64,000 bases of DNA from Candidatus Latescibacterota bacterium (GTDB taxonomy: Bacteria; Latescibacterota; UBA2968; GCA-2709665), in assembly GCA_965203805.1 (NCBI GenBank), contig OZ241917.1, positions 5,568,001 through 5,632,000 of the forward strand, written 5' to 3'. Position numbers and translations under genes: made by a program. The notes below the pieces were generated by a model. It was given only the letters and a program-made list of their open reading frames with translations, did not search any database and was not told where the DNA came from. This document shows positions 13,512 through 57,470 of this stretch, one piece after another. Each line of letters opens with the position of its first letter. Positions within the stretch are counted from its first letter, which is position 1.

Positions 13512-13740
13512 TCCCCTTTAATTCACGATTCGGAACTTACACGGATAAACAGGATGAACAGGATAAAACCGAAAAGCGCGAGAACAAGAACATCAGAAAC
13601 TACGAAACACGCGAAGAATACGAAAAAGGCGACAACCTGAATCATCCACAAAAACAGAACTCACATGGATGGACCTGCCTGCTGAAGCAGGCGAGGCAGG
13701 CAGGATGAACAGGATAAAAACCAAAGAACGCGAGAAAACG
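13512..13740 (+). repeat. cluster of ~9-bp-period triple repeats (CAGGATGAA-type x2, CACGAAA-type)
   Basis: CACGGATAAACAGGATGAACAGGATAAA at ~13540 repeated at ~13662 with a 27-nt insertion; inverted homolog at 34969-35043. Confidence 0.8.
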
Positions 13741-15756: not shown

Positions 15757-15818
15757 ACGACCGCGGCGGGACGCCAGCGCAACGTATCGCCCCCCGCAAG
15801 CCGATCATGGAGGAGGTT

Positions 15819-17534
15819 ATGGACAACCGTGAGGTCGCGGAAACCCTGGAAGAGATGGCGGCGCTGATGGAACTGAACGGCGAGGGCGGGTTTCGCATAC
15901 GCGCGTACGCCAATGCCGCCCGGGCAATCGATTCCCTCGGGGAACCGGTATCGGCGCTGGCGGCCGGGGGAAAGCTGGATACGGTCCGGGGCGTCGGGAA
16001 GGGACTCGCGGGGCGAATCAGCGAACTCGTGGAGACGGGGCGTCTGCCCGGTCTGGAGGAATTGAAGGCGTCCGTCCCGGAAGGGCTGATGGAGATGACG
16101 GAGATTCCCGGCCTGGGGGCGAAGAGAGTGCGGGCGATCTACGAAGAACTGGGCATCGTGGACGTCGATGCGCTCTCCAGAGCATGCGACTCCGGCGAGC
16201 TGGAATCGATGAGCGGTTTCGGCAGGAAAACGGCCGAACGGATCGCGAACGGCATTCAATACATGCAGAAGCACCGCGGCCGGTTTCTGTGCAATAACGC
16301 ACGCGATGAAGCGGAAGCGATTCGGGCGTATCTCGAAGGCCGGGGGAACGTGGACCGGCTGGCCGTGGCGGGAACGATACGGCGCCGCTGCGAAACGCAC
16401 GGTGAAATCGATCTGGTGGCGTGCGCAACGGATCCCGAAGGGCTTGCCGGGGCATTTGAGGGGTATCGTGAGGTGGAGGAAGTTCTGGAGACCGGAGCGA
16501 CGCCGCTGAGTGTTATGTTGAACTCCGGAATGCGCGCGAATCTGTGGATCGTGGCGGAGGAGGCGTACTCGGCTGCTCTCCATCACGTAACGGGTAGCGC
16601 ATCGCACGTCGCGCAAATGCGCGAGAGGGCGTCGGAAGTTGGATTGAGACTGAGCGAAGAAGGATTGTTTGACGGCGATCGCCGGATTCCCGGTGAGGAC
16701 GAGGCGGCGCTGTTCGAGGCGCTGGGTCTGTCCGAGGTCCCTCCGGAACTGCGGGAGGGCGGAGACGAGGTCCGAGTGGCCGCGGCCGGAGGGCTTCCCC
16801 GACTGGTGAGACGAGAGGATCTGCTGGGGACGCTTCACGTGCATACCCGGCACAGCGACGGCCGGGCGGACGTGATGGAGATGGCGAACGCTGCGGCCGA
16901 CCTGGGCTACACGTATATCGGGATTTGCGACCACAGCAGGGCGGCGGCCTATGCGAACGGCCTGACGGAGGACCGGGTCCGCGCCCAGTGGGAGGAAATC
17001 GACAGCGTCAATGCGGAACGAACGGACATCCGGGTGTTGAAGGGGATCGAGGTGGACATCCTGAGCGACGGGCGTCTGGACTTTGAGGACGAATTCCTGG
17101 CGGAGTTCGACGTTGTCGTGGCGTCGGTGCATTCCAGATTCGGCATGACCGAGGCCGAAGCGACCGAGCGGATCGTACGTGCGGTGCGCAACCCTCACGT
17201 GGACATTCTGGGGCACCCGACCGGGCGATTGTTGCTGGCCCGCGAGGGGTATCCGCTGGATCACCGCGCCGTTATCGACGCGGCGGCCGAGTCCAATACG
17301 GCCATTGAGCTGAACGCCAATCCCCGGCGCCTGGACATGGACTGGCGGCATATCGGATACGCGCGGGAAAAAGGCGTGAAGATTTCTATCAACACCGATG
17401 CCCACAGTATCGAGGGTCTGGAGCAGATGGACCACGGTCTGGGCTGCGGCCGAAAGGGCGGGCTGACCGCCGCGGAGGTCCTTAACGCGATGACTATTGA
17501 TGGTTTCATGTCATGGCGCAACGAATCTGAATAA
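15819..17534 (+). CDS. polX: DNA polymerase X / PHP 3'-5' exonuclease, polymerase site altered
   Basis: MDNREVA, FRIRAY, HhH motifs, VPPELREG; PHP motifs LHVHT, DHS, GIEVD, SVHS, GHPTGR, NTDAH. Confidence 0.93.
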   Translation: MDNREVAETLEEMAALMELNGEGGFRIRAYANAARAIDSLGEPVSALAAGGKLDTVRGVGKGLAGRISELVETGRLPGLEELKASVPEGLMEMTEIPGLGAKRVRAIYEELGIVDVDALSRACDSGELESMSGFGRKTAERIANGIQYMQKHRGRFLCNNARDEAEAIRAYLEGRGNVDRLAVAGTIRRRCETHGEIDLVACATDPEGLAGAFEGYREVEEVLETGATPLSVMLNSGMRANLWIVAEEAYSAALHHVTGSASHVAQMRERASEVGLRLSEEGLFDGDRRIPGEDEAALFEALGLSEVPPELREGGDEVRVAAAGGLPRLVRREDLLGTLHVHTRHSDGRADVMEMANAAADLGYTYIGICDHSRAAAYANGLTEDRVRAQWEEIDSVNAERTDIRVLKGIEVDILSDGRLDFEDEFLAEFDVVVASVHSRFGMTEAEATERIVRAVRNPHVDILGHPTGRLLLAREGYPLDHRAVIDAAAESNTAIELNANPRRLDMDWRHIGYAREKGVKISINTDAHSIEGLEQMDHGLGCGRKGGLTAAEVLNAMTIDGFMSWRNESE

Positions 17535-17540
17535 GCGTGA

Positions 17541-17698
17541 AACATGGATGAACCTGCCTGCTGAAGCAGGCGAGGCAGGCAGGATGAGCAGGATTAAGAC
17601 CACAAACCGCAGAACCGTTACTGTGTCCCGCTTTGATTGAGTTATTGTAGGGTTTTTCCCGAATTTGCCTTTAATCCTGTCTATCCTGTGTATCCATG
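17541..17698. repeat. inverted pair of CATGGAT/CAGGAT repeats; right arm is the intron target
   Basis: left arm AACATGGATGAA[27 nt]CAGGATGAGCAGGATTAA, right arm TTAATCCTGTCTATCCTGTGTATCCATG|TT. Confidence 0.8.
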
Positions 17699-18483
17699 GT
17701 GCGCCGTGAAAAGGCGCGGAACTCCAGTGGGTGAGAGTCCCACCCGACAAATGTTGCTGCGGTCGGTAGCAACCGGAGCGGGGGTGAAGGTAACGACATC
17801 TCCGAAGCCTCCGGTGTAAAGGGTCGCAAGGCGACTCGGCGAGTATGCGGGCCGAAACGTGCAGTGAACGCTGAGCAGGCCTCGAAAAAGGTAATGCGGG
17901 AGCCGACCCGCCCATGGATCGGGGAAGGCCGCCGTCGTTGGAAAAAGAGAGCAACGCGCGCATCCAACGGTCCCGCCTGCCTGTCCGAGGGACGCAGGCA
18001 GGCCGGGGTAATGGCGAAGGCACGTATACAAGGAGATCCGACGCAACACGGGAAGCCCCAGCGGTGGTGTATAGACACCAACCGGACGCCCGTGAGGGAC
18101 AGGCCGGGCCGTATGGGGTGGCGGACAGGCTCGTAGTACCCGTGAAGCCGGGTAATGCCGGTGGAGGGAAGGGGCCTGACTTCGGATGTGCTTGTGAAGG
18201 GGACAACGGTCGGGAGAGTGGCGCAAGCCTATTACCTCCTCTAAAAGTAGATGAGGCGACTCCAGAGCAAGCTTGGGCTTCAGGTGAAGCTGTCCGGGCA
18301 GTGCGGGCAGCGTGTGCCTGAAGGCGACGTCCGTCGGAGAGCCGGATGCGGGAAAACCGCACGTCCGGTTCGATGAGCGGGATGTGGAAACGGAGCACGG
18401 AGCGGCTATTGAGGCACCGCCAGACGAAAGGGGCGGAAACAGATAGGCCACTCCTAAACCACCGCGCCACATCTCGACTCTAC
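17699..18483 (+). mobile_element. ORF-less group II intron, copy 1 (785 nt)
   Basis: starts GTGCG, ends CTCGACTCTAC; domain V GAGCCGGATGCGGGAAAACCGCACGTCCGGTTC at 18339-18371; domain III AGTACCCGTGAAGCCGGGTAATGCCGGTGGAGGGAAGG; no RT ORF. Confidence 0.95.
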
Positions 18484-18561
18484 TTCGATGACTTTCGCAG
18501 TCATTCGGCCACAGTCATCAACTGCAATAACAACGGACGGATAGGATAAGCAGGAGGCAAC

Positions 18562-19326
18562 TTGGAACGCGAAGATATCTTTGACAATGTTCAGTCCATT
18601 GTTGAGAAAAAGGACCTTTACGCCGCGAGCGAGTTCGTGTTTGGTCTCTGGGACGAGACCGACGTCGTGAAGACTTTTGAAGACCTCCTGCTGGACTGCT
18701 ACTGGAAGGCCAAATCCATCGAGCAGGTGATCCACTTTGCCAACGCTGGCATCCACTATTGTCTCGCCAGGGCGTGGTCTTCAGGCGACCTGGGCGACGA
18801 CCTCTACGACGAAATCTACGACGATCCCGAGAGGGAGCTTCTGTTCGCCGCCAAGCGGATGGCCACGAATGCCGCATCCTTCACCTGGATCGGCTGGAAC
18901 GAACCGGACATTGAGATTACGCGCGAGCAGAGGCGGCGCGGAATCGCGTTCGCGCGGTACAGCGTCAGGCAACTGCGTGAACTGGACCCGACTGGCGCGC
19001 AGCTTGCCTATACGTACTGGTATCTCGCCGCGCACCTGATGGCGAATGAATCCTATGCCGATGCGCTGTCGGTGTTCGGGGAGGCTCGTGATCACAGCGC
19101 CTCCGCAGGCGGAGATCCCGATCAACCGGCGATGTTCGACGGATACATCGGGCTGACGAAGATCCTTTCCGGCGACAACGAAACCGGCGAATCGGAATTC
19201 GATTCGGCGGTTGCCGCCCTCGAATCCCGCGATAGCGAAGACGCCGCCTTCTACGCGAAACAACTCGTCGACGTCAGGACATTTTTTGAACGGCGGTTGG
19301 CATCAGACGCTGGAGACGGGCGTTGA
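18562..19326 (+). CDS. hypothetical alpha-helical (TPR-like) protein
   Basis: 254 aa, TTG start after AGGAGG; helical repeat-like pattern. Confidence 0.7.
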   Translation: MEREDIFDNVQSIVEKKDLYAASEFVFGLWDETDVVKTFEDLLLDCYWKAKSIEQVIHFANAGIHYCLARAWSSGDLGDDLYDEIYDDPERELLFAAKRMATNAASFTWIGWNEPDIEITREQRRRGIAFARYSVRQLRELDPTGAQLAYTYWYLAAHLMANESYADALSVFGEARDHSASAGGDPDQPAMFDGYIGLTKILSGDNETGESEFDSAVAALESRDSEDAAFYAKQLVDVRTFFERRLASDAGDGR

Positions 19327-48745: not shown

Positions 48746-51532
48746 ATGGACCCACGGGAACTCAGGGAACTGTCTTCGAGAAGTGGACATTTTTCGTCCG
48801 CCAGCGAATACAGTGTGTATATCTCGCGCACCTACCTGCTGAACATATTCCGTGCTGCCCAGTTCAACCGAAGCATTCGGTCGGACCTCGTTGACTGGTT
48901 GGAGGATGACGAGACCACTCCAAAGCTCCTGAATGTCGGTTGGATTGTTCAAGACGGACACAAAAAAAGGGCAGTTATCAGAAACATCAAGCGTGCTGTT
49001 CAGGATCTCGAGCAGAAGACCGTAAGGCCACCTGAATCGGCCCCCGACACTACTGCAACCCGACTGGTCGTCGAACGTTTTTCGCTTAGCCCCGCGGCCG
49101 CCGCGCTACTCGAACTGGCGCACAGCTATAGCCATTGTTCTCCCACTAAAGAGATTTGGGACGCATTCTGCCACTCATGTTCAAGTTCGGTTGATAGACT
49201 GGAAGTCTTCCTGGGGCGCCCGCGACTCGAGATCGAGAGGGGTCTCAGAGAACTCGCTAGCTCCGGTATCACAGATTGGCGGACGGGCACGCGACCGAAC
49301 AAATACCACGATCCGGACGACCTCATAGAAGATTGGTTCTACGAAGTATGGTATCCGCCAGTGCGGGATATGGAAGAATTGACTGCTCGCCTGGTCGGTG
49401 AACCCTGTGTTGCCCGATTGTGTTTCGATGACTTCGCCCACGTCACAGAACGCAAGACCGTTCGCCGAACTTTGAGTGCAGTAATGCTCCAGCGATCCAA
49501 CGGCGCGCCGGTAAGGGGCGTCAACATCCTGCTCGTGGGTCGGGCGGGTACTGGCAAGACCGAATTCGCAAAGACGATCGCAGCGACATCCGGCTTGACA
49601 CTCTATTCCGTTGGGGAAATGGGAAATGGTGACGAAGAATCCTGCGATACCGACAACGACAGGCGCGCCGACCGTCGCAATGAACTGCGCATGGCGCAAA
49701 CACTGCTTCAGACCATGCCCGAAGCCGCGATTTTGTGCGACGAGGCGGAGGACGCGCTGGAGTCCACCAGCGGCTCCCGCCTCGTCAACCACCGGATGAT
49801 GGAGGAAAATCCCGTTCCGGTGATTTACACCGCGAACAGTTTAAAAGACCTGGACGAGAGCATGCTCCGGCGTTTCACGATGGTCGTCAGATTTAGGGCC
49901 CACGGCCCGACGCGTCAGGCTGCCATTTTAGGCCGAATGCTGGCCGAAAGCGGCATCGAGCGCGTCGATCCGGACGCATGCGCCAGGAAACTCGTCGACC
50001 GACTTGAGTGCCCCCCGGGGGTCGTGGCCAAAGCCATCGAGACGACGCGTCTGGTCGGCGGCACGGAGGCGGATCTCTACGAATTCTGCGAACGGTCCGA
50101 ACGCACCATCGCCGCACATAAAGCGCGCCCGCGTCTGGGGCCACCGATTGGGGCTGCGTTGCCGTGGAATGCGTTTTCGCACCTGGGGCCTACAGCCGAA
50201 GACGTGAGACAGACCCTTGCGGCCGCGATGGATTCGAAGCCAGGAGGCATCAATGTCCTCTTGTACGGACCTCCGGGAACCGGGAAAACCGAATTTGCAC
50301 GTACGCTCTGCGGCGAAGTGGGTGCACGCATGTACGCGATCGGCGACAATAAAGTTGGTTCCGAGACGCGTGTTGCCGTATCCCGTACGAAAACACTCGA
50401 TTATGCGCTGGAGTCATTGGCCGACGAGCCCGACTCGGTGATTTTCTTCGATGAAATGGAGGACTTCGACAGCGTGGAGAAACACTGGCTGAATCGCATC
50501 GTCGAAGAAAATCCGGTGCCCATCATCTGGGCGTGCAACTCGATTGGCTTCTACCGGATGATTCAGCCGTTCTTCATCGACCGGATGATGCACGCGATCG
50601 AATTCCACCGCATGTCCGTCGGCGCGAGGAAGCGTGTGTTCTCCGGTATTCTCACCAATGCACAGGTGCCTGATCCGGAAGCACGGCGATTTGCGACGGA
50701 ACTGGCGCACGACGACAGAATAACCCCCAGGCACCTGGCTCTGGCCGCACATCAGGCGGCTATGATCGCGGGGAACGCGGATGTCATCCGGCGCAATATT
50801 GAACAAAAAGTGAAACTGCGTTACGGCGTCCGTCCGGTCGAAAGCGTCCCCATCGAGAACTACAACCTGTCTCTGGTCAACGCGGATACGAATCTGGAAG
50901 CATTGACCGCACGGATGGTTGGAATCGGCCCGAAGCGTTTCGCGCTTTGTCTGTACGGCCCGCCCGGAACCGGGAAGACGGCTTTTGTGCGCCACATTGC
51001 AGAACGAATGGGAATGGAATTGTTGCCGAAACGAGCCTCGGATCTGCTCAGCATGTGGGTGGGGCAAACGGAACAGCAGATGGCCGCAGCCTTTGCTGAA
51101 GCTATTGAGACAGGCTCATTCCTTGTATTCGACGAGGCCGACTCCCTCCTGATGGACCGGGAGCACGCCGTGCGGTCGTGGGAAACCAGCATGGTTAATG
51201 AGTTGCTCAGCCAGATGGAGCGGCACCCGCTTCCCTTCGCCTGCACGACGAATCGGCGGGAAGCGCTCGATCCGGCGGCCGCCCGCCGCTTCATGTTCAG
51301 GGTCGAGTTCTTCTACATGGATAGACAGCGCGTCGAAAGGGCTTTCAGGTTCTTCTATGGCTGTGAAGCGCCCGTGGAGGCACTTGCGCTGAACAAACTC
51401 ACGCCCGCGGATTTCGCAAATGTCCGCGAGCGTGCGAAGATCATGAATTTTCTCAACGATCCGGAGCGTATCGGCCGCGAACTCGCGGAAGAGTGCCACG
51501 CGAAGCCGGGCGGCTCACCGGTGGGCTTCTGA
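48746..51532 (+). CDS. AAA+ ATPase with three tandem AAA modules
   Basis: Walker A GRAGTGKT, GPPGTGKT, GPPGTGKT; Walker B ILCDE, IFFDE, LVFDE; C-terminal VGF; AGGAGAGG RBS. Confidence 0.92.
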   Translation: MDPRELRELSSRSGHFSSASEYSVYISRTYLLNIFRAAQFNRSIRSDLVDWLEDDETTPKLLNVGWIVQDGHKKRAVIRNIKRAVQDLEQKTVRPPESAPDTTATRLVVERFSLSPAAAALLELAHSYSHCSPTKEIWDAFCHSCSSSVDRLEVFLGRPRLEIERGLRELASSGITDWRTGTRPNKYHDPDDLIEDWFYEVWYPPVRDMEELTARLVGEPCVARLCFDDFAHVTERKTVRRTLSAVMLQRSNGAPVRGVNILLVGRAGTGKTEFAKTIAATSGLTLYSVGEMGNGDEESCDTDNDRRADRRNELRMAQTLLQTMPEAAILCDEAEDALESTSGSRLVNHRMMEENPVPVIYTANSLKDLDESMLRRFTMVVRFRAHGPTRQAAILGRMLAESGIERVDPDACARKLVDRLECPPGVVAKAIETTRLVGGTEADLYEFCERSERTIAAHKARPRLGPPIGAALPWNAFSHLGPTAEDVRQTLAAAMDSKPGGINVLLYGPPGTGKTEFARTLCGEVGARMYAIGDNKVGSETRVAVSRTKTLDYALESLADEPDSVIFFDEMEDFDSVEKHWLNRIVEENPVPIIWACNSIGFYRMIQPFFIDRMMHAIEFHRMSVGARKRVFSGILTNAQVPDPEARRFATELAHDDRITPRHLALAAHQAAMIAGNADVIRRNIEQKVKLRYGVRPVESVPIENYNLSLVNADTNLEALTARMVGIGPKRFALCLYGPPGTGKTAFVRHIAERMGMELLPKRASDLLSMWVGQTEQQMAAAFAEAIETGSFLVFDEADSLLMDREHAVRSWETSMVNELLSQMERHPLPFACTTNRREALDPAAARRFMFRVEFFYMDRQRVERAFRFFYGCEAPVEALALNKLTPADFANVRERAKIMNFLNDPERIGRELAEECHAKPGGSPVGF

Positions 51533-55107: not shown

Positions 55108-55564
55108 GCTATCCCCAAATGTAGAGCGTAGGGAGATTTTGTCAGCAACGGTCTTGACCATGCAGTCTCGACATGTTATATTTACGGCGTCAACGATTGG
55201 GCAGCTTCCCGCATGTCGGGTAGCCTACCAAATACAACAACGGAATTAAAGGGACACGGGTAGCTCCCATGTCCTCCGTGAATAGGTCGGACCTTCCCGC
55301 ATCCTCAAAGCTGCGTGATCGTTGACACTACCCGACACCCATACCCGGGTGACAGTGTCAACGGTATTCTACGCCGGAGAATGCGATGCGAAGCCCACTC
55401 GCAGCCGTAACGCTATTGGTCTGTGTGAATATCCCACCAACAGTCAACTGTCCACCCGATGGCGCCCTGCCTCACGTGTATCCGAGCGGGAAGCAATCTG
55501 CTTCCCGACACCAATCAAGCCTTAACTGGCCGTAACTTCGGGGGTTCGCATTACCCGGAGTCTA

Positions 55565-55757
55565 ACCTTGATTCGACATTTTTCGGTTAGGTTAAATCGA
55601 ATATGGGCTAGTTAATAAAGGCGATTTGACGTCGGATTTCCAGGATACTTCAGGTCACTGGACGTGAACGGAAAAAATGTCCATTTCGACGACTTTATCG
55701 GCCCAATTCGGAAGGATTTGTCGCGGCGCCGCGTTGCGGCTTTTGTCGAATTAAGGC
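55565..55757. mobile_element. MITE-like element B
   Basis: TA|ACCTTGATTCGACA ... TGTCGAATTAAGGC|TA, 12/14 inverted match. Confidence 0.6.
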
Positions 55758-55864
55758 TAAGCCCTAAACGCCTTGGAGCGTTACAGAAAGTCGCCTGATT
55801 TATTTCACAAGGGGGATATATGAGCATCAAAGAGAAACGCAACGCCATGCGTATGGGAAACAGA

Positions 55865-56445: not shown

Positions 56446-57470
56446 ATGGGGGCGGTCTCCCGCATCCGGTCCACCACCCGCTGGTCGTTCACCTTGCCCG
56501 AAATGCCAGGGACTGCGACAGGTCGCACGGACCGAGGAAGACGACGTCCAGGTCGGACCGGGCGTTTATCGCGTCCAGGCTCTCCACGCTTTCCACGTGG
56601 ATCAGGACCATGGATTCCCTGGTGCGCCGTGAAAAGGCGCGGAACTCCAGTGGGTGAGAGTCCCACCCGACAAATGTTGCTGCGGTCGGTAGCAACCGGA
56701 GCGGGGGTGAAGGTAACGACATCTCCGAAGCCTCCGGTGTAAAGGGTCGCAAGGCGACTCGGCGAGTATGCGGGCCGAAACGTGCAGTGAACGCTGAGCA
56801 GGCCTCGAAAAAGGTAATGCGGGAGCCGACCCGCCCATGGATCGGGGAAGGCCGCCGTCGTTGGAAAAAGAGAGCAACGCGCGCATCCAACGGTCCCGCC
56901 TGCCTGTCCGAGGGACGCAGGCAGGCCGGGGTAATGGCGAAGGCACGTATACAAGGAGATCCGACGCAACACGGGAAGCCCCAGCGGTGGTGTATAGACA
57001 CCAACCGGACGCCCGTGAGGGACAGGCCGGGCCGTATGGGGTGGCGGACAGGCTCGTAGTACCCGTGAAGCCGGGTAATGCCGGTGGAGGGAAGGGGCCT
57101 GACTTCGGATGTGCTTGTGAAGGGGACAACGGTCGGGAGAGTGGCGCAAGCCTATTACCTCCTCTAAAAGTAGATGAGGCGACTCCAGAGCAAGCTTGGG
57201 CTTCAGGTGAAGCTGTCCGGGCAGTGCGGGCAGCGTGTGCCTGAAGGCGACGTCCGTCGGAGAGCCGGATGCGGGAAAACCGCACGTCCGGTTCGATGAG
57301 CGGGATGTGGAAACGGAGCACGGAGCGGCTATTGAGGCACCGCCAGACGAAAGGGGCGGAAACAGATAGGCCACTCCTAAACCACCGCGCCACATCTCGA
57401 CTCTACTTAAGCCGCTCGAAGATCTGCCCCCCTTCCAAGAAGTACCGGGCCACACGTGTATAGGGCCAGG
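56446..57470 (-). pseudogene. HpcH/HpaI aldolase fragment interrupted by intron copy 2
   Basis: removing the intron restores QIFERLNRESMVLIHVESVESLDAI...LDVVFLGPCDLSQSL; frameshifts on both sides. Confidence 0.8.
56622..57406 (+). mobile_element. ORF-less group II intron, copy 2 (785 nt)
   Basis: same length and, by eye and by identical ORF translations, same sequence as 17699-18483. Confidence 0.95.

Follow-up and report, generated by a model that had tools for sequence, protein, structure and literature searches.

The window analyzed here, a 64,000-nt stretch of the one-contig, 5.87-Mb genome of a Candidatus Latescibacterota bacterium (G000), contains a 785-nt group II intron that carries no reverse-transcriptase open reading frame (ORF) and that stands near the end of a dispersed repeat, directly after seven nucleotides exactly complementary to a loop in domain I of the intron. 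This copy (c1) is recognized by two Rfam matches, one to the domain I-IV model RF02003 (102.4 bits against a cut-off of 49, at 17725-17862) and one to the complete domain V/VI model RF00029 (46.9 bits against a cut-off of 40, at 18337-18483), and the same two matches recur in a second copy (c2) at 56648-56785 and 57260-57406. Positions are those of the window unless marked as genomic, and the features are collected in Table 1. The boundaries of c1 were set by the divergence of flanks among copies and by an orthologous site that is empty. Its ends, GTGCG at 17699 and CTCTAC finishing at 18483, are identical in six copies and conform to the group II consensus GUGYG and AY; the intron is followed by TT.

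Two of the six full copies thus lie in the window, and a third (c3, genome 134676-135460) differs from c1 at two of 785 positions (783/785 identical). These three constitute subfamily A, and three more (c4, c5 and c6), with 89-90% identity to them, constitute subfamily B, for a genome total of six full ORF-less copies and three 5′ fragments. Relatives of the ORF-less intron include a full-length form of 1979 nt, and positions 1-479 and 635-785 of the former align to 1-452 and 1829-1979 of the latter; the letters of domain IV that remain between these blocks appear, when compared by eye, to be a diverged start of the ORF. The stretch that follows domain V (18373-18483) measures 111 nt, including about 90 extra nucleotides within domain VI, which is unusually long, and this long stretch is 98% conserved between the ORF-less and full-length forms.

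Table 1. Positions of the intron copies, their target-recognition elements and the surrounding repeats (EBS, exon-binding site; IBS, intron-binding site; MITE, miniature inverted-repeat transposable element; a caret marks the insertion point).
Feature	Position	Strand	Basis or remarks
ORF-less group II intron, copy 1 (c1)	17699..18483	+	785 nt, GTGCG...CTCTAC; Rfam matches and boundaries
EBS1 (CAUGGAU)	17913..17919	+	Covaries better with flank -1 to -5 than any other domain I column
IBS1 (ATCCATG), last 7 nt of 5′ flank	17692..17698	+	Exact complement of EBS1
Probable EBS2 (AAGGU), intron 190-194	17888..17892	+	Pairs with flank -14 to -10 across variants
Candidate EBS3 (A), intron position 313	18011	+	Best partner of first 3′ exon base
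IBS3 (T), first 3′ flank base	18484	+	T next in 70/73 sites without the intron's G; T after 21/22 A-type introns
Domain IV remnant	18178..18332	+	155 nt standing where full-length relatives have a 1376-nt ORF segment
Domain V	18339..18372	+	RF00029 alignment
Domain VI, long distal insertion (~90 nt), bulged A in ..CGACUCUAC	18375..18483	+	RF00029 alignment
Right arm, core of dispersed repeat 1 (..TTTAATCCTGTCTATCCTGTGTATCCATG), homing site	17660..17698	+	75 genomic sites, copy-number profile
Left arm, second repeat 1 copy, inverted; unoccupied ATCCATG^T at 17542-17549	17542..17600	-	Window sequence
Unoccupied ATCCATG^T in another repeat 1 copy	13663..13670	-	Pattern match
Intron copy 2 (c2)	56622..57406	+	785/785 identical to c1; non-repeat site, flank TTCCCTG^TT; EBS1 56836-56842
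Repeat 2 copy, MITE-like, ~200 nt	~55563..55761	+	Ends TAACCTTGATTCGACA and reverse complement of TGTCGAATTAAGGCTA, as read; unoccupied B-type homing-site family
31-nt mini hairpin in left arm of inverted pair	17553..17583		Absent at orthologous G012 locus
27-nt mini hairpin inside c1	17976..18002		Same family

An earlier reading of the window from its letters alone (the sequence-only reading) had identified as exon-binding site 1 (EBS1) the loop CATGGAT, which lies between ..GCCGACCCGCC and CGGGGAAGGC and is complementary to the flank directly before GTGCG, the intron-binding site 1 (IBS1); its coordinates are correct, and covariation agrees with the assignment. In an unbiased scan, 46 distinct 5′ parts of the intron were aligned and all columns were compared with each flank position for complementarity; flank positions -1 to -5 found their best partners in intron positions 215, 216, 217, 218 and 219, which were paired in 88-95% of cases through three to five pair types. 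A formal count of pairs in 54 sequences found changes on both sides in all seven EBS1-IBS1 pairs, with 92.3% of cells paired. The EBS1 and EBS2 helices jointly have 81.6% of cells paired, compared with 59.5% in shuffled data (none of 500 shuffles was as high) and at most 47% in controls that slid the partner by 1-3 columns; the tested structure was derived from the same sequences and is hence favored over its slid versions, but the margin is nonetheless large. Loop and flank are matched within both subfamilies, A having CATGGAT with ATCCATG and B having TGACGAT with TTCGTCA, and relatives supply the further combinations TTTCGAA/TTCGAAA, TTGCGAA/TTCGCAA, TGAATTA/TAATTCA, TGTCAGC/GCTGACA and TGACGGC/GCTGTCA. 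Judged by this covariation, the loop at 17913-17919 is EBS1.

A second contact is probable, and a third has a candidate. The segment assigned to EBS2 varies together with flank positions -14 to -10 (AAGGT/ACCTT, AGGC/GCCT, AGCT/GGCT, AGCC/GGTT and CGTT/AACG), although its helix is weaker than that of EBS1, with 66.7% of cells paired. The candidate EBS3 at intron position 313 faces the first 3′ exon base as T-A in 26, G-C in 4, A-T in 1 and T-G in 2 of 35 copies. The covarying 7-nt IBS1 and the covarying EBS2 candidate distinguish the intron from subgroup IIC, which is marked by an IBS1 of very few nucleotides, the lack of an EBS2 and dependence on a hairpin in the target. Two other candidates for EBS2 were rejected: the hairpin loop TATAGA (GGTGGTG..CACC, intron ~365-380), which the fold places in domain II and which does not vary with the flanks, and the GGACAGG motifs (intron ~400 and ~425), proposed partners of CCTGTCC, which vary among copies with the same target and are constant across lineages with different ones.

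The flank that EBS1 recognizes belongs to the first of several dispersed repeats (repeat 1), two copies of which form an inverted pair at c1. As the sequence-only reading had described, the outer 7 nt of the pair mirror each other (CATGGAT at 17543-17549, ATCCATG at 17692-17698); further in, the arms (17580-17597 against 17671-17688) have 83% complementarity. The two unoccupied minus-strand sites that it had listed were found again, and a third ATCCATGT site lies at 51315-51322. These three matches are not above chance for the window, since 18 of 100 shuffles also reach three, and so the case is carried by the whole genome and its relatives. Genome-wide, ATCCTGTNNATCCATG occurs at 75 sites, where it is followed by T in 70, by an intron in 2 (c1 and c3) and by A or C in 3, and the repeat consensus at the site reads TTTTTGGTTTTTATCCTGTTCATCCTGTCCATCCATG^T. 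The copy-number profile peaks over positions -50 to -1 before the insertion point and is down to 1 beyond +25, which places the homing site near the 3′ edge of the repeat. Repeat 1 is mostly intergenic, with 25 of 77 sites (32%) under an ORF of at least 150 aa as compared with 90% of the genome, and 92 of 115 (80%) for ATCCATGT sites outside the repeat. All 14 other genus genomes that were searched contain a 16-mer of repeat 1 (10-93 copies each), as do two of seven other genomes of the family, while its reversed control pattern has no match in any of the 22 family genomes. The intron with the CATGGAT loop is found in only 3 of 14 genus genomes, so that the repeat is older and more widespread than this A-type intron. 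For repeat 1 itself, the observed features are its copy number, its location mostly between genes and its sharply defined 3′ edge, the designation MITE-like (resembling a miniature inverted-repeat transposable element) resting on repeat 2, described below. Outside the window, at genome ~5765900-5773700 (G000:C1), about 20 repeat 1 cores crowd into 8 kb, some of them at regular spacings of 130-260 nt.

A pattern search for the CATGGAT EBS1 hairpin in the 22 family genomes returned 22 A-type copies from three species (3 in G000, 12 in G001 and 7 in G008), 18 of which directly follow the ATCC(T/G..)ATCCATG of a repeat 1 copy. The survey of flanks that the sequence-only reading had suggested as a check on its proposal therefore favors it, and does so at independent loci. 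The four copies outside the repeat are c2 (TTCCCTG^T), L043 (GTCCATG^G), L047 (GTCCATG^T) and L052 (ATCCATG^T); the flank of c2 agrees with the repeat at 5/7 positions, or at 5/6 when counted, as in the sequence-only reading, from TCCCTG^T. All 11 ORF-containing copies are in repeat 1, and all four off-repeat copies are ORF-less. Beyond the repeat, the upstream flanks of the 22 copies are unrelated, a weak and offset match in a single pair excepted, which indicates that they arose by separate insertions. Within one genome the introns are identical or nearly so, but the repeat sequences immediately around them vary from copy to copy (TGTGTATCCATG, TGTCCATCCATG and TGTATATCCATG before the site; TAAGTT, TGAGTT, TTCCCC and TTCGAT after it). 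At the locus orthologous to that of c1, the relative G012 has the same end of the family X DNA polymerase (PolX) gene, the inverted pair and the 3′ flank, and the site reads ATCCTGTGTATCCATG^TTTGGTG.. without interruption. The site is likewise empty in four more of the seven relatives' loci examined, making five in all (G012, G004, G009, G014 and G005); in the remaining two, G001 and G003, the search expression had no match.

The pattern is broader than the sequence-only reading had proposed, for that reading missed that two more dispersed repeats serve as targets for sister lineages of the same intron family. The B-type site, TAACCTTGATTCGTCA^TTATTCGGGG.., stands at the beginning of repeat 2, a dispersed element of ~200 nt in ~75 copies, which is MITE-like in being short, non-coding, multicopy and bounded by terminal inverted repeats (TIRs); no Rfam family reaches its gathering threshold for repeat 2 in the window. 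The TIRs are 16 nt long (TAACCTTGATTCGNCA..) and match at 13/16 positions in the window copy as read, and the B-type insertion point coincides exactly with the inner edge of the TIR. Among the three full B copies, c4 and c5 are in repeat 2 and c6 is at a look-alike site outside it; 20 B-type repeat 2 sites in G000 are unoccupied. G003 has its own version of repeat 2, and all eight copies examined in that species lie at the corresponding position within it, with an EBS1 changed to match; in another G001 lineage (L064-L068), a third repeat (..AATAAATGGAAGCTGACA^ACTGCTCTTCCTGACCACTGG..) holds all five copies. Flanks that start with TA(A/G)CCT.. are found in several other lineages. Life in dispersed repeats is thus a habit of the whole intron family, within which the A lineage is one retargeting event. 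A sequence like the third repeat also occurs in G000 (genome ~3603385, minus strand), about 300 nt upstream of a repeat 1 core, an arrangement which hints that the repeats may be modules of larger composite elements.

Half of the A-type copies (11/22, comprising all seven in G008 and four in G001) are too long for the ORF-less form. Seven were taken in full, three from G008 and four from G001; they have lengths of 1978-1979 nt and contain a 463-codon open frame. The remaining four extend beyond the end of their 3026-nt loci. From its first ATG, the intron-encoded protein (IEP) has 441 aa and contains an RVT_1 domain (residues 96-317) and a GIIM domain (340-407), scoring 126 and 51 bits, respectively, in the G001/G008 relatives. 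Nothing follows GIIM, so that the protein has no C-terminal endonuclease domain. The nearest plasmid-borne IEPs are those of a Planctomyces sp. (62%) and Frigoriglobus (61%), and searches of PDB and plasmids with the IEP named only generic group II reverse transcriptases (RTs) and reached no class assignment. In c1 the remnant of domain IV replaces the RT-maturase, and no other copy supplies it: the single-contig assembly of G000 contains no GIIM match, no homologue of the 441-aa IEP and no pseudogene trace of it (best tblastn E = 1.1). The only RT in G000 is a 522-aa protein with RVT_1 alone (L001 733-2301, minus strand, corresponding to G000:C1 ~1678993-1680561), which is far under the group II cut-off (71.6 vs 300 bits) and bears some resemblance to defence RTs. 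In NCBIfam it matches Drt4 best, with 82.5 bits, which is far below the cut-off.

Repeat-directed homing of an ORF-less intron through EBS/IBS pairing is the best explanation for the position of c1, and we hold it to be probable; the intron and its relatives settle mostly in repeats rather than in genes. In this scheme, c1 would be an internally deleted member of a genus-wide, IIB-like family whose full-length form of 1979 nt encodes an endonuclease-less RT-maturase. Base pairing would choose the target, EBS1 CAUGGAU with ATCCATG and the A of EBS3 with the next T, and a weak EBS2 contact, probably together with contacts made by the protein, would extend recognition to about -17. The resulting site of eight or more nucleotides is the conserved, near-terminal core of a mostly intergenic repeat that predates the intron lineage, and new copies would for the most part insert into, and persist in, copies of this repeat, with nothing interrupted. 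In sister lineages the ribozyme would have been retained while EBS1, in some cases together with EBS2, was altered to match different repeats; the commonest of these targets is the inner edge of the TIR (16 nt) in the ~200-nt MITE-like element. Retrohoming into replication forks with priming by the nascent strand is established for endonuclease-less introns, and the present family would presumably move in the same way, by reverse splicing into DNA at forks. For their mobility the ORF-less copies would draw in trans on the RT that full-length copies encode, an enzyme that would have been lost from G000 recently.

Several observations weigh against this account. Folding of domain I, to which the sequence-only reading had looked for EBS1 and EBS3, did not yield a textbook EBS1 hairpin: the minimum-free-energy structure pairs C215 and U221, and the mean probability of being unpaired across EBS1 is 0.69. 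Because thermodynamic folding alone lacks the canonical hairpin, EBS1 was assigned by covariation, which also provides the candidate EBS3. With the A-type repeat target, EBS2 forms only about 3 bp (AGG/CCU), and these with a shift of 1 nt. No more than 2 of the 75 repeat 1 sites in G000 are occupied. Among contigs from four public sequencing runs (a run of what is probably the source isolate, a DNA run and an RNA run from a coral sample, and an RNA run of marine origin), none joins 17698 to 18484, and hence they show no splicing and no polymorphic empty site; contigs of the RNA runs span the intron but not its flanks and, coming from a multicopy element, are no evidence of excision or expression. 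A strand bias relative to replication is expected for endonuclease-less introns. Under an assumed origin and terminus, all three A copies and seven of the nine copies and fragments taken together are co-directional, but the weakness of the cumulative GC skew, which also implies very unequal replichores, leaves no basis for testing such a bias. Finally, the missing intron RT makes present-day homing in G000 doubtful.

How far the distribution reflects targeting, and how far the selection that follows insertion, depends on the null expectation. Of all ATCCATGT sites, 38.5% fall within repeat 1, a share far exceeded by the 18 of 22 copies found there (binomial P = 4e-5). Against an intergenic-only null (52 of 75 ATCCATGT sites in the repeat, or 69%), they do not differ significantly (P = 0.15), and both nulls take their frequencies from G000 only, not from G001 or G008; targeting beyond IBS1 and IBS3 is consequently not proven. 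The whole distribution might then be one of retention, with an intron that needs little beyond ATCCATG^T inserting wherever it finds this site, genic copies being purged and survivors gathering in the repeat that holds most of the intergenic 8-mers. The contrast in ORF coverage between repeat and non-repeat sites and the weak EBS2 pairing with repeat 1 are what such a process would lead one to expect, and the same alternative was raised for the introns of Thermosynechococcus elongatus (Mohr et al., 2010; PMC2882425). As the sole explanation, however, retention seems unlikely. In flanks read by eye, T-17, A-16 and C-13 of the repeat site are shared by three of the four off-repeat sites (L043, L047 and L052), and C-14 by L043 and L052, which hints that recognition may extend beyond 8 nt. 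The exclusive placement of ORF-containing copies in the repeat and the same habit in sister lineages with quite different targets likewise speak against it, and it concedes the main point, namely that the motif matched by EBS1 occurs, where insertion is tolerated, mostly in the repeat. The safe harbour that the sequence-only reading envisaged in an abundant intergenic repeat accordingly receives support from the copy distribution, qualified by the intergenic-only test and by the lack of an intron RT in G000, and it may owe as much to post-insertion selection as to targeting.

Of the other ways in which the introns could have come to their present state, the one that concerns G000 today is about an even call: its copies may be immobile relics of a burst that ended with the loss of the last RT-encoding copy, and at most still splice. 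Besides the missing IEP and the low occupancy of repeat 1, the three 5′ fragments attest to decay, and ORF-less introns are described as no longer retromobile except where a related IEP works in trans (PMC4424553). The identity of c1 with c2 (785/785) and its near-identity with c3, on the other hand, suggest that the last moves were recent, and the RT-bearing copy may either have been lost since or reside on a plasmid or other replicon outside the single-contig assembly. In any case, immobility bears on present activity and not on the route by which the copies entered the repeat. That this route was passive, a single entry into one repeat copy being followed by multiplication of the repeat through MITE-like transposition or duplication, is highly improbable. 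The targets do resemble mobile elements, repeat 2 with its 16-nt TIRs and ~75 copies in particular, but near-identical introns amid differing repeat sequences argue against co-amplification, as do the presence of the c1 repeat without intron at the orthologous locus of five species, the four copies at IBS1-like sites outside any repeat, and the emptiness of most repeat copies. Unlikely, too, is a nested system of parasites, made up of the intron family and the host's MITE-like repeats, in which the ancestral site was the inner edge of the TIR and lineages followed variants of the repeat through EBS1, one of them to the opposite strand a few nucleotides further in, with recent moves effected by the unrelated 522-aa RT or by an RT-independent route. 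Homing by EBS/IBS pairing into the repeats remains the preferred reading.

The surroundings of the two window copies contain several further elements. Immediately before the repeat pair of c1 is a gene for a family X DNA polymerase with HHH_8, pol beta thumb and PHP domains (15807-17534, plus strand), and the repeat pair is kept downstream of this gene in at least one other species (G012). Mini hairpins of the form CCTGCCTG..CAGGCAGG, mostly 27-37 nt long, number 151 in the genome (the reversed control has none), and in addition to the two in Table 1 the window contains others at 13674-13704 and 56899-56925. The 27-nt hairpin within c1 is also present in c2, c3, c5 and c6 and is absent from c4, from the 758-nt copies of G001 and from one RNA-run contig. 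Mini hairpins come and go at three positions among intron copies, and these differences, along with the absence of the 31-nt hairpin from the G012 locus, suggest that they behave as independent insertions. Copy 2 is antisense to, and 10 nt upstream of, a 40-aa remnant (56492-56611, minus strand) whose resemblance, below the cut-off (E = 0.0045), is to the central part of HpcH/HpaI aldolases. A minus-strand frame runs through the insertion site, and disruption of a gene by c2 was considered and rejected: the upstream part of the frame overlaps a plus-strand ORF and only the HpcH-like remnant is recognizable, so no intact gene can be claimed there. In public runs X8 and X16, compared with window positions 17300-18900, contigs of a coral metatranscriptome cover the intron, one lacking the 27-nt mini hairpin and none continuing past 18487. 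A contig of a marine metatranscriptome has 1376 letters in place of the 155-nt remnant and represents the ORF-containing form. At L007 (G004:C52), the 5′ flank of an intron copy is the 3′ end of another (..CCCTACTCTAC^GTGCG), which points to tandem or nested introns.

Bacterial group II introns as a rule insert into intergenic DNA or other mobile elements (PMC12584367), and avoidance of genes by way of other mobile DNA or of terminators is known. In the family described here, a full-length EBS-IBS specificity appears to be aimed at short, non-coding dispersed repeats. A search of the literature, subscription journals not covered, showed among the papers listed no account of EBS targeting of a group II intron to such short repeats. 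Sister lineages, each of which has been retuned to its own repeat or variant of a repeat, offer a natural series of retargeting, with EBS1, EBS2 and EBS3 and the corresponding sites, which is open to mobility assays, and the system is suited to separating targeting from post-insertion selection. Several ORF-less introns in a bacterial genome without an intron RT are moreover a rare case: according to a 2015 review, ORF-less introns of bacteria are rare and nearly always share the genome with a related IEP, a single exception being known (PMC4424553). That exception is C.te.I1 of Clostridium tetani, which is likewise ORF-less in a genome without an IEP gene, but is a single copy in a gene and has alternative 3′ splice sites (PMC4424553), whereas here there are six full copies, mostly in repeats.

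The closest parallel is provided by the TeI3/TeI4 introns of T. elongatus, which, as described by Mohr et al. (2010; PMC2882425), are a single family that proliferated within genomes, with lineages diverged in their EBS sequences to new targets, ORF-less deletion derivatives that retain ORF remnants and are mobilized in trans, and a preference for mobile elements and intergenic DNA. Their targets are other introns and an IS200-family element, where those of the present family are short MITE-like or repetitive extragenic palindromic (REP)-like non-coding repeats in tens of copies, and the pattern here extends across many species of a genus and includes a focal genome without the driver RT. The homing site of RmInt1 of Sinorhizobium meliloti is also in a multicopy mobile element, although that element, ISRm2011-2, is a protein-coding insertion sequence (PMC1802570). 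Introns of subgroup IIC, which use transcription terminators and attC sites, are likewise endonuclease-less and specialized on abundant intergenic motifs, but they recognize a DNA hairpin together with very short IBS pairings (PMC4424553, PMC12584367), in contrast to the 7-nt covarying IBS1 and the EBS2 found here. Methanosarcina acetivorans introns that home into introns enjoy a similarly self-renewing and non-essential site, their target being an intron and not an independent repeat family (PMC4424553). An intron beside extragenic repeats has been recorded for Pseudomonas putida KT2440 and its REP sequences (Tobes and Pareja, 2006; PMC1525189), but for only two of nine copies, and the table row that lists it is silent on complementarity between EBS and REP. 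What is distinctive of the present family against this background is the combination of short non-coding repeat targets in tens of copies, a full 7-nt IBS1 fitted to the core of a repeat, EBS-differentiated lineages throughout a genus, and a host genome in which the copies persist without an intron RT.

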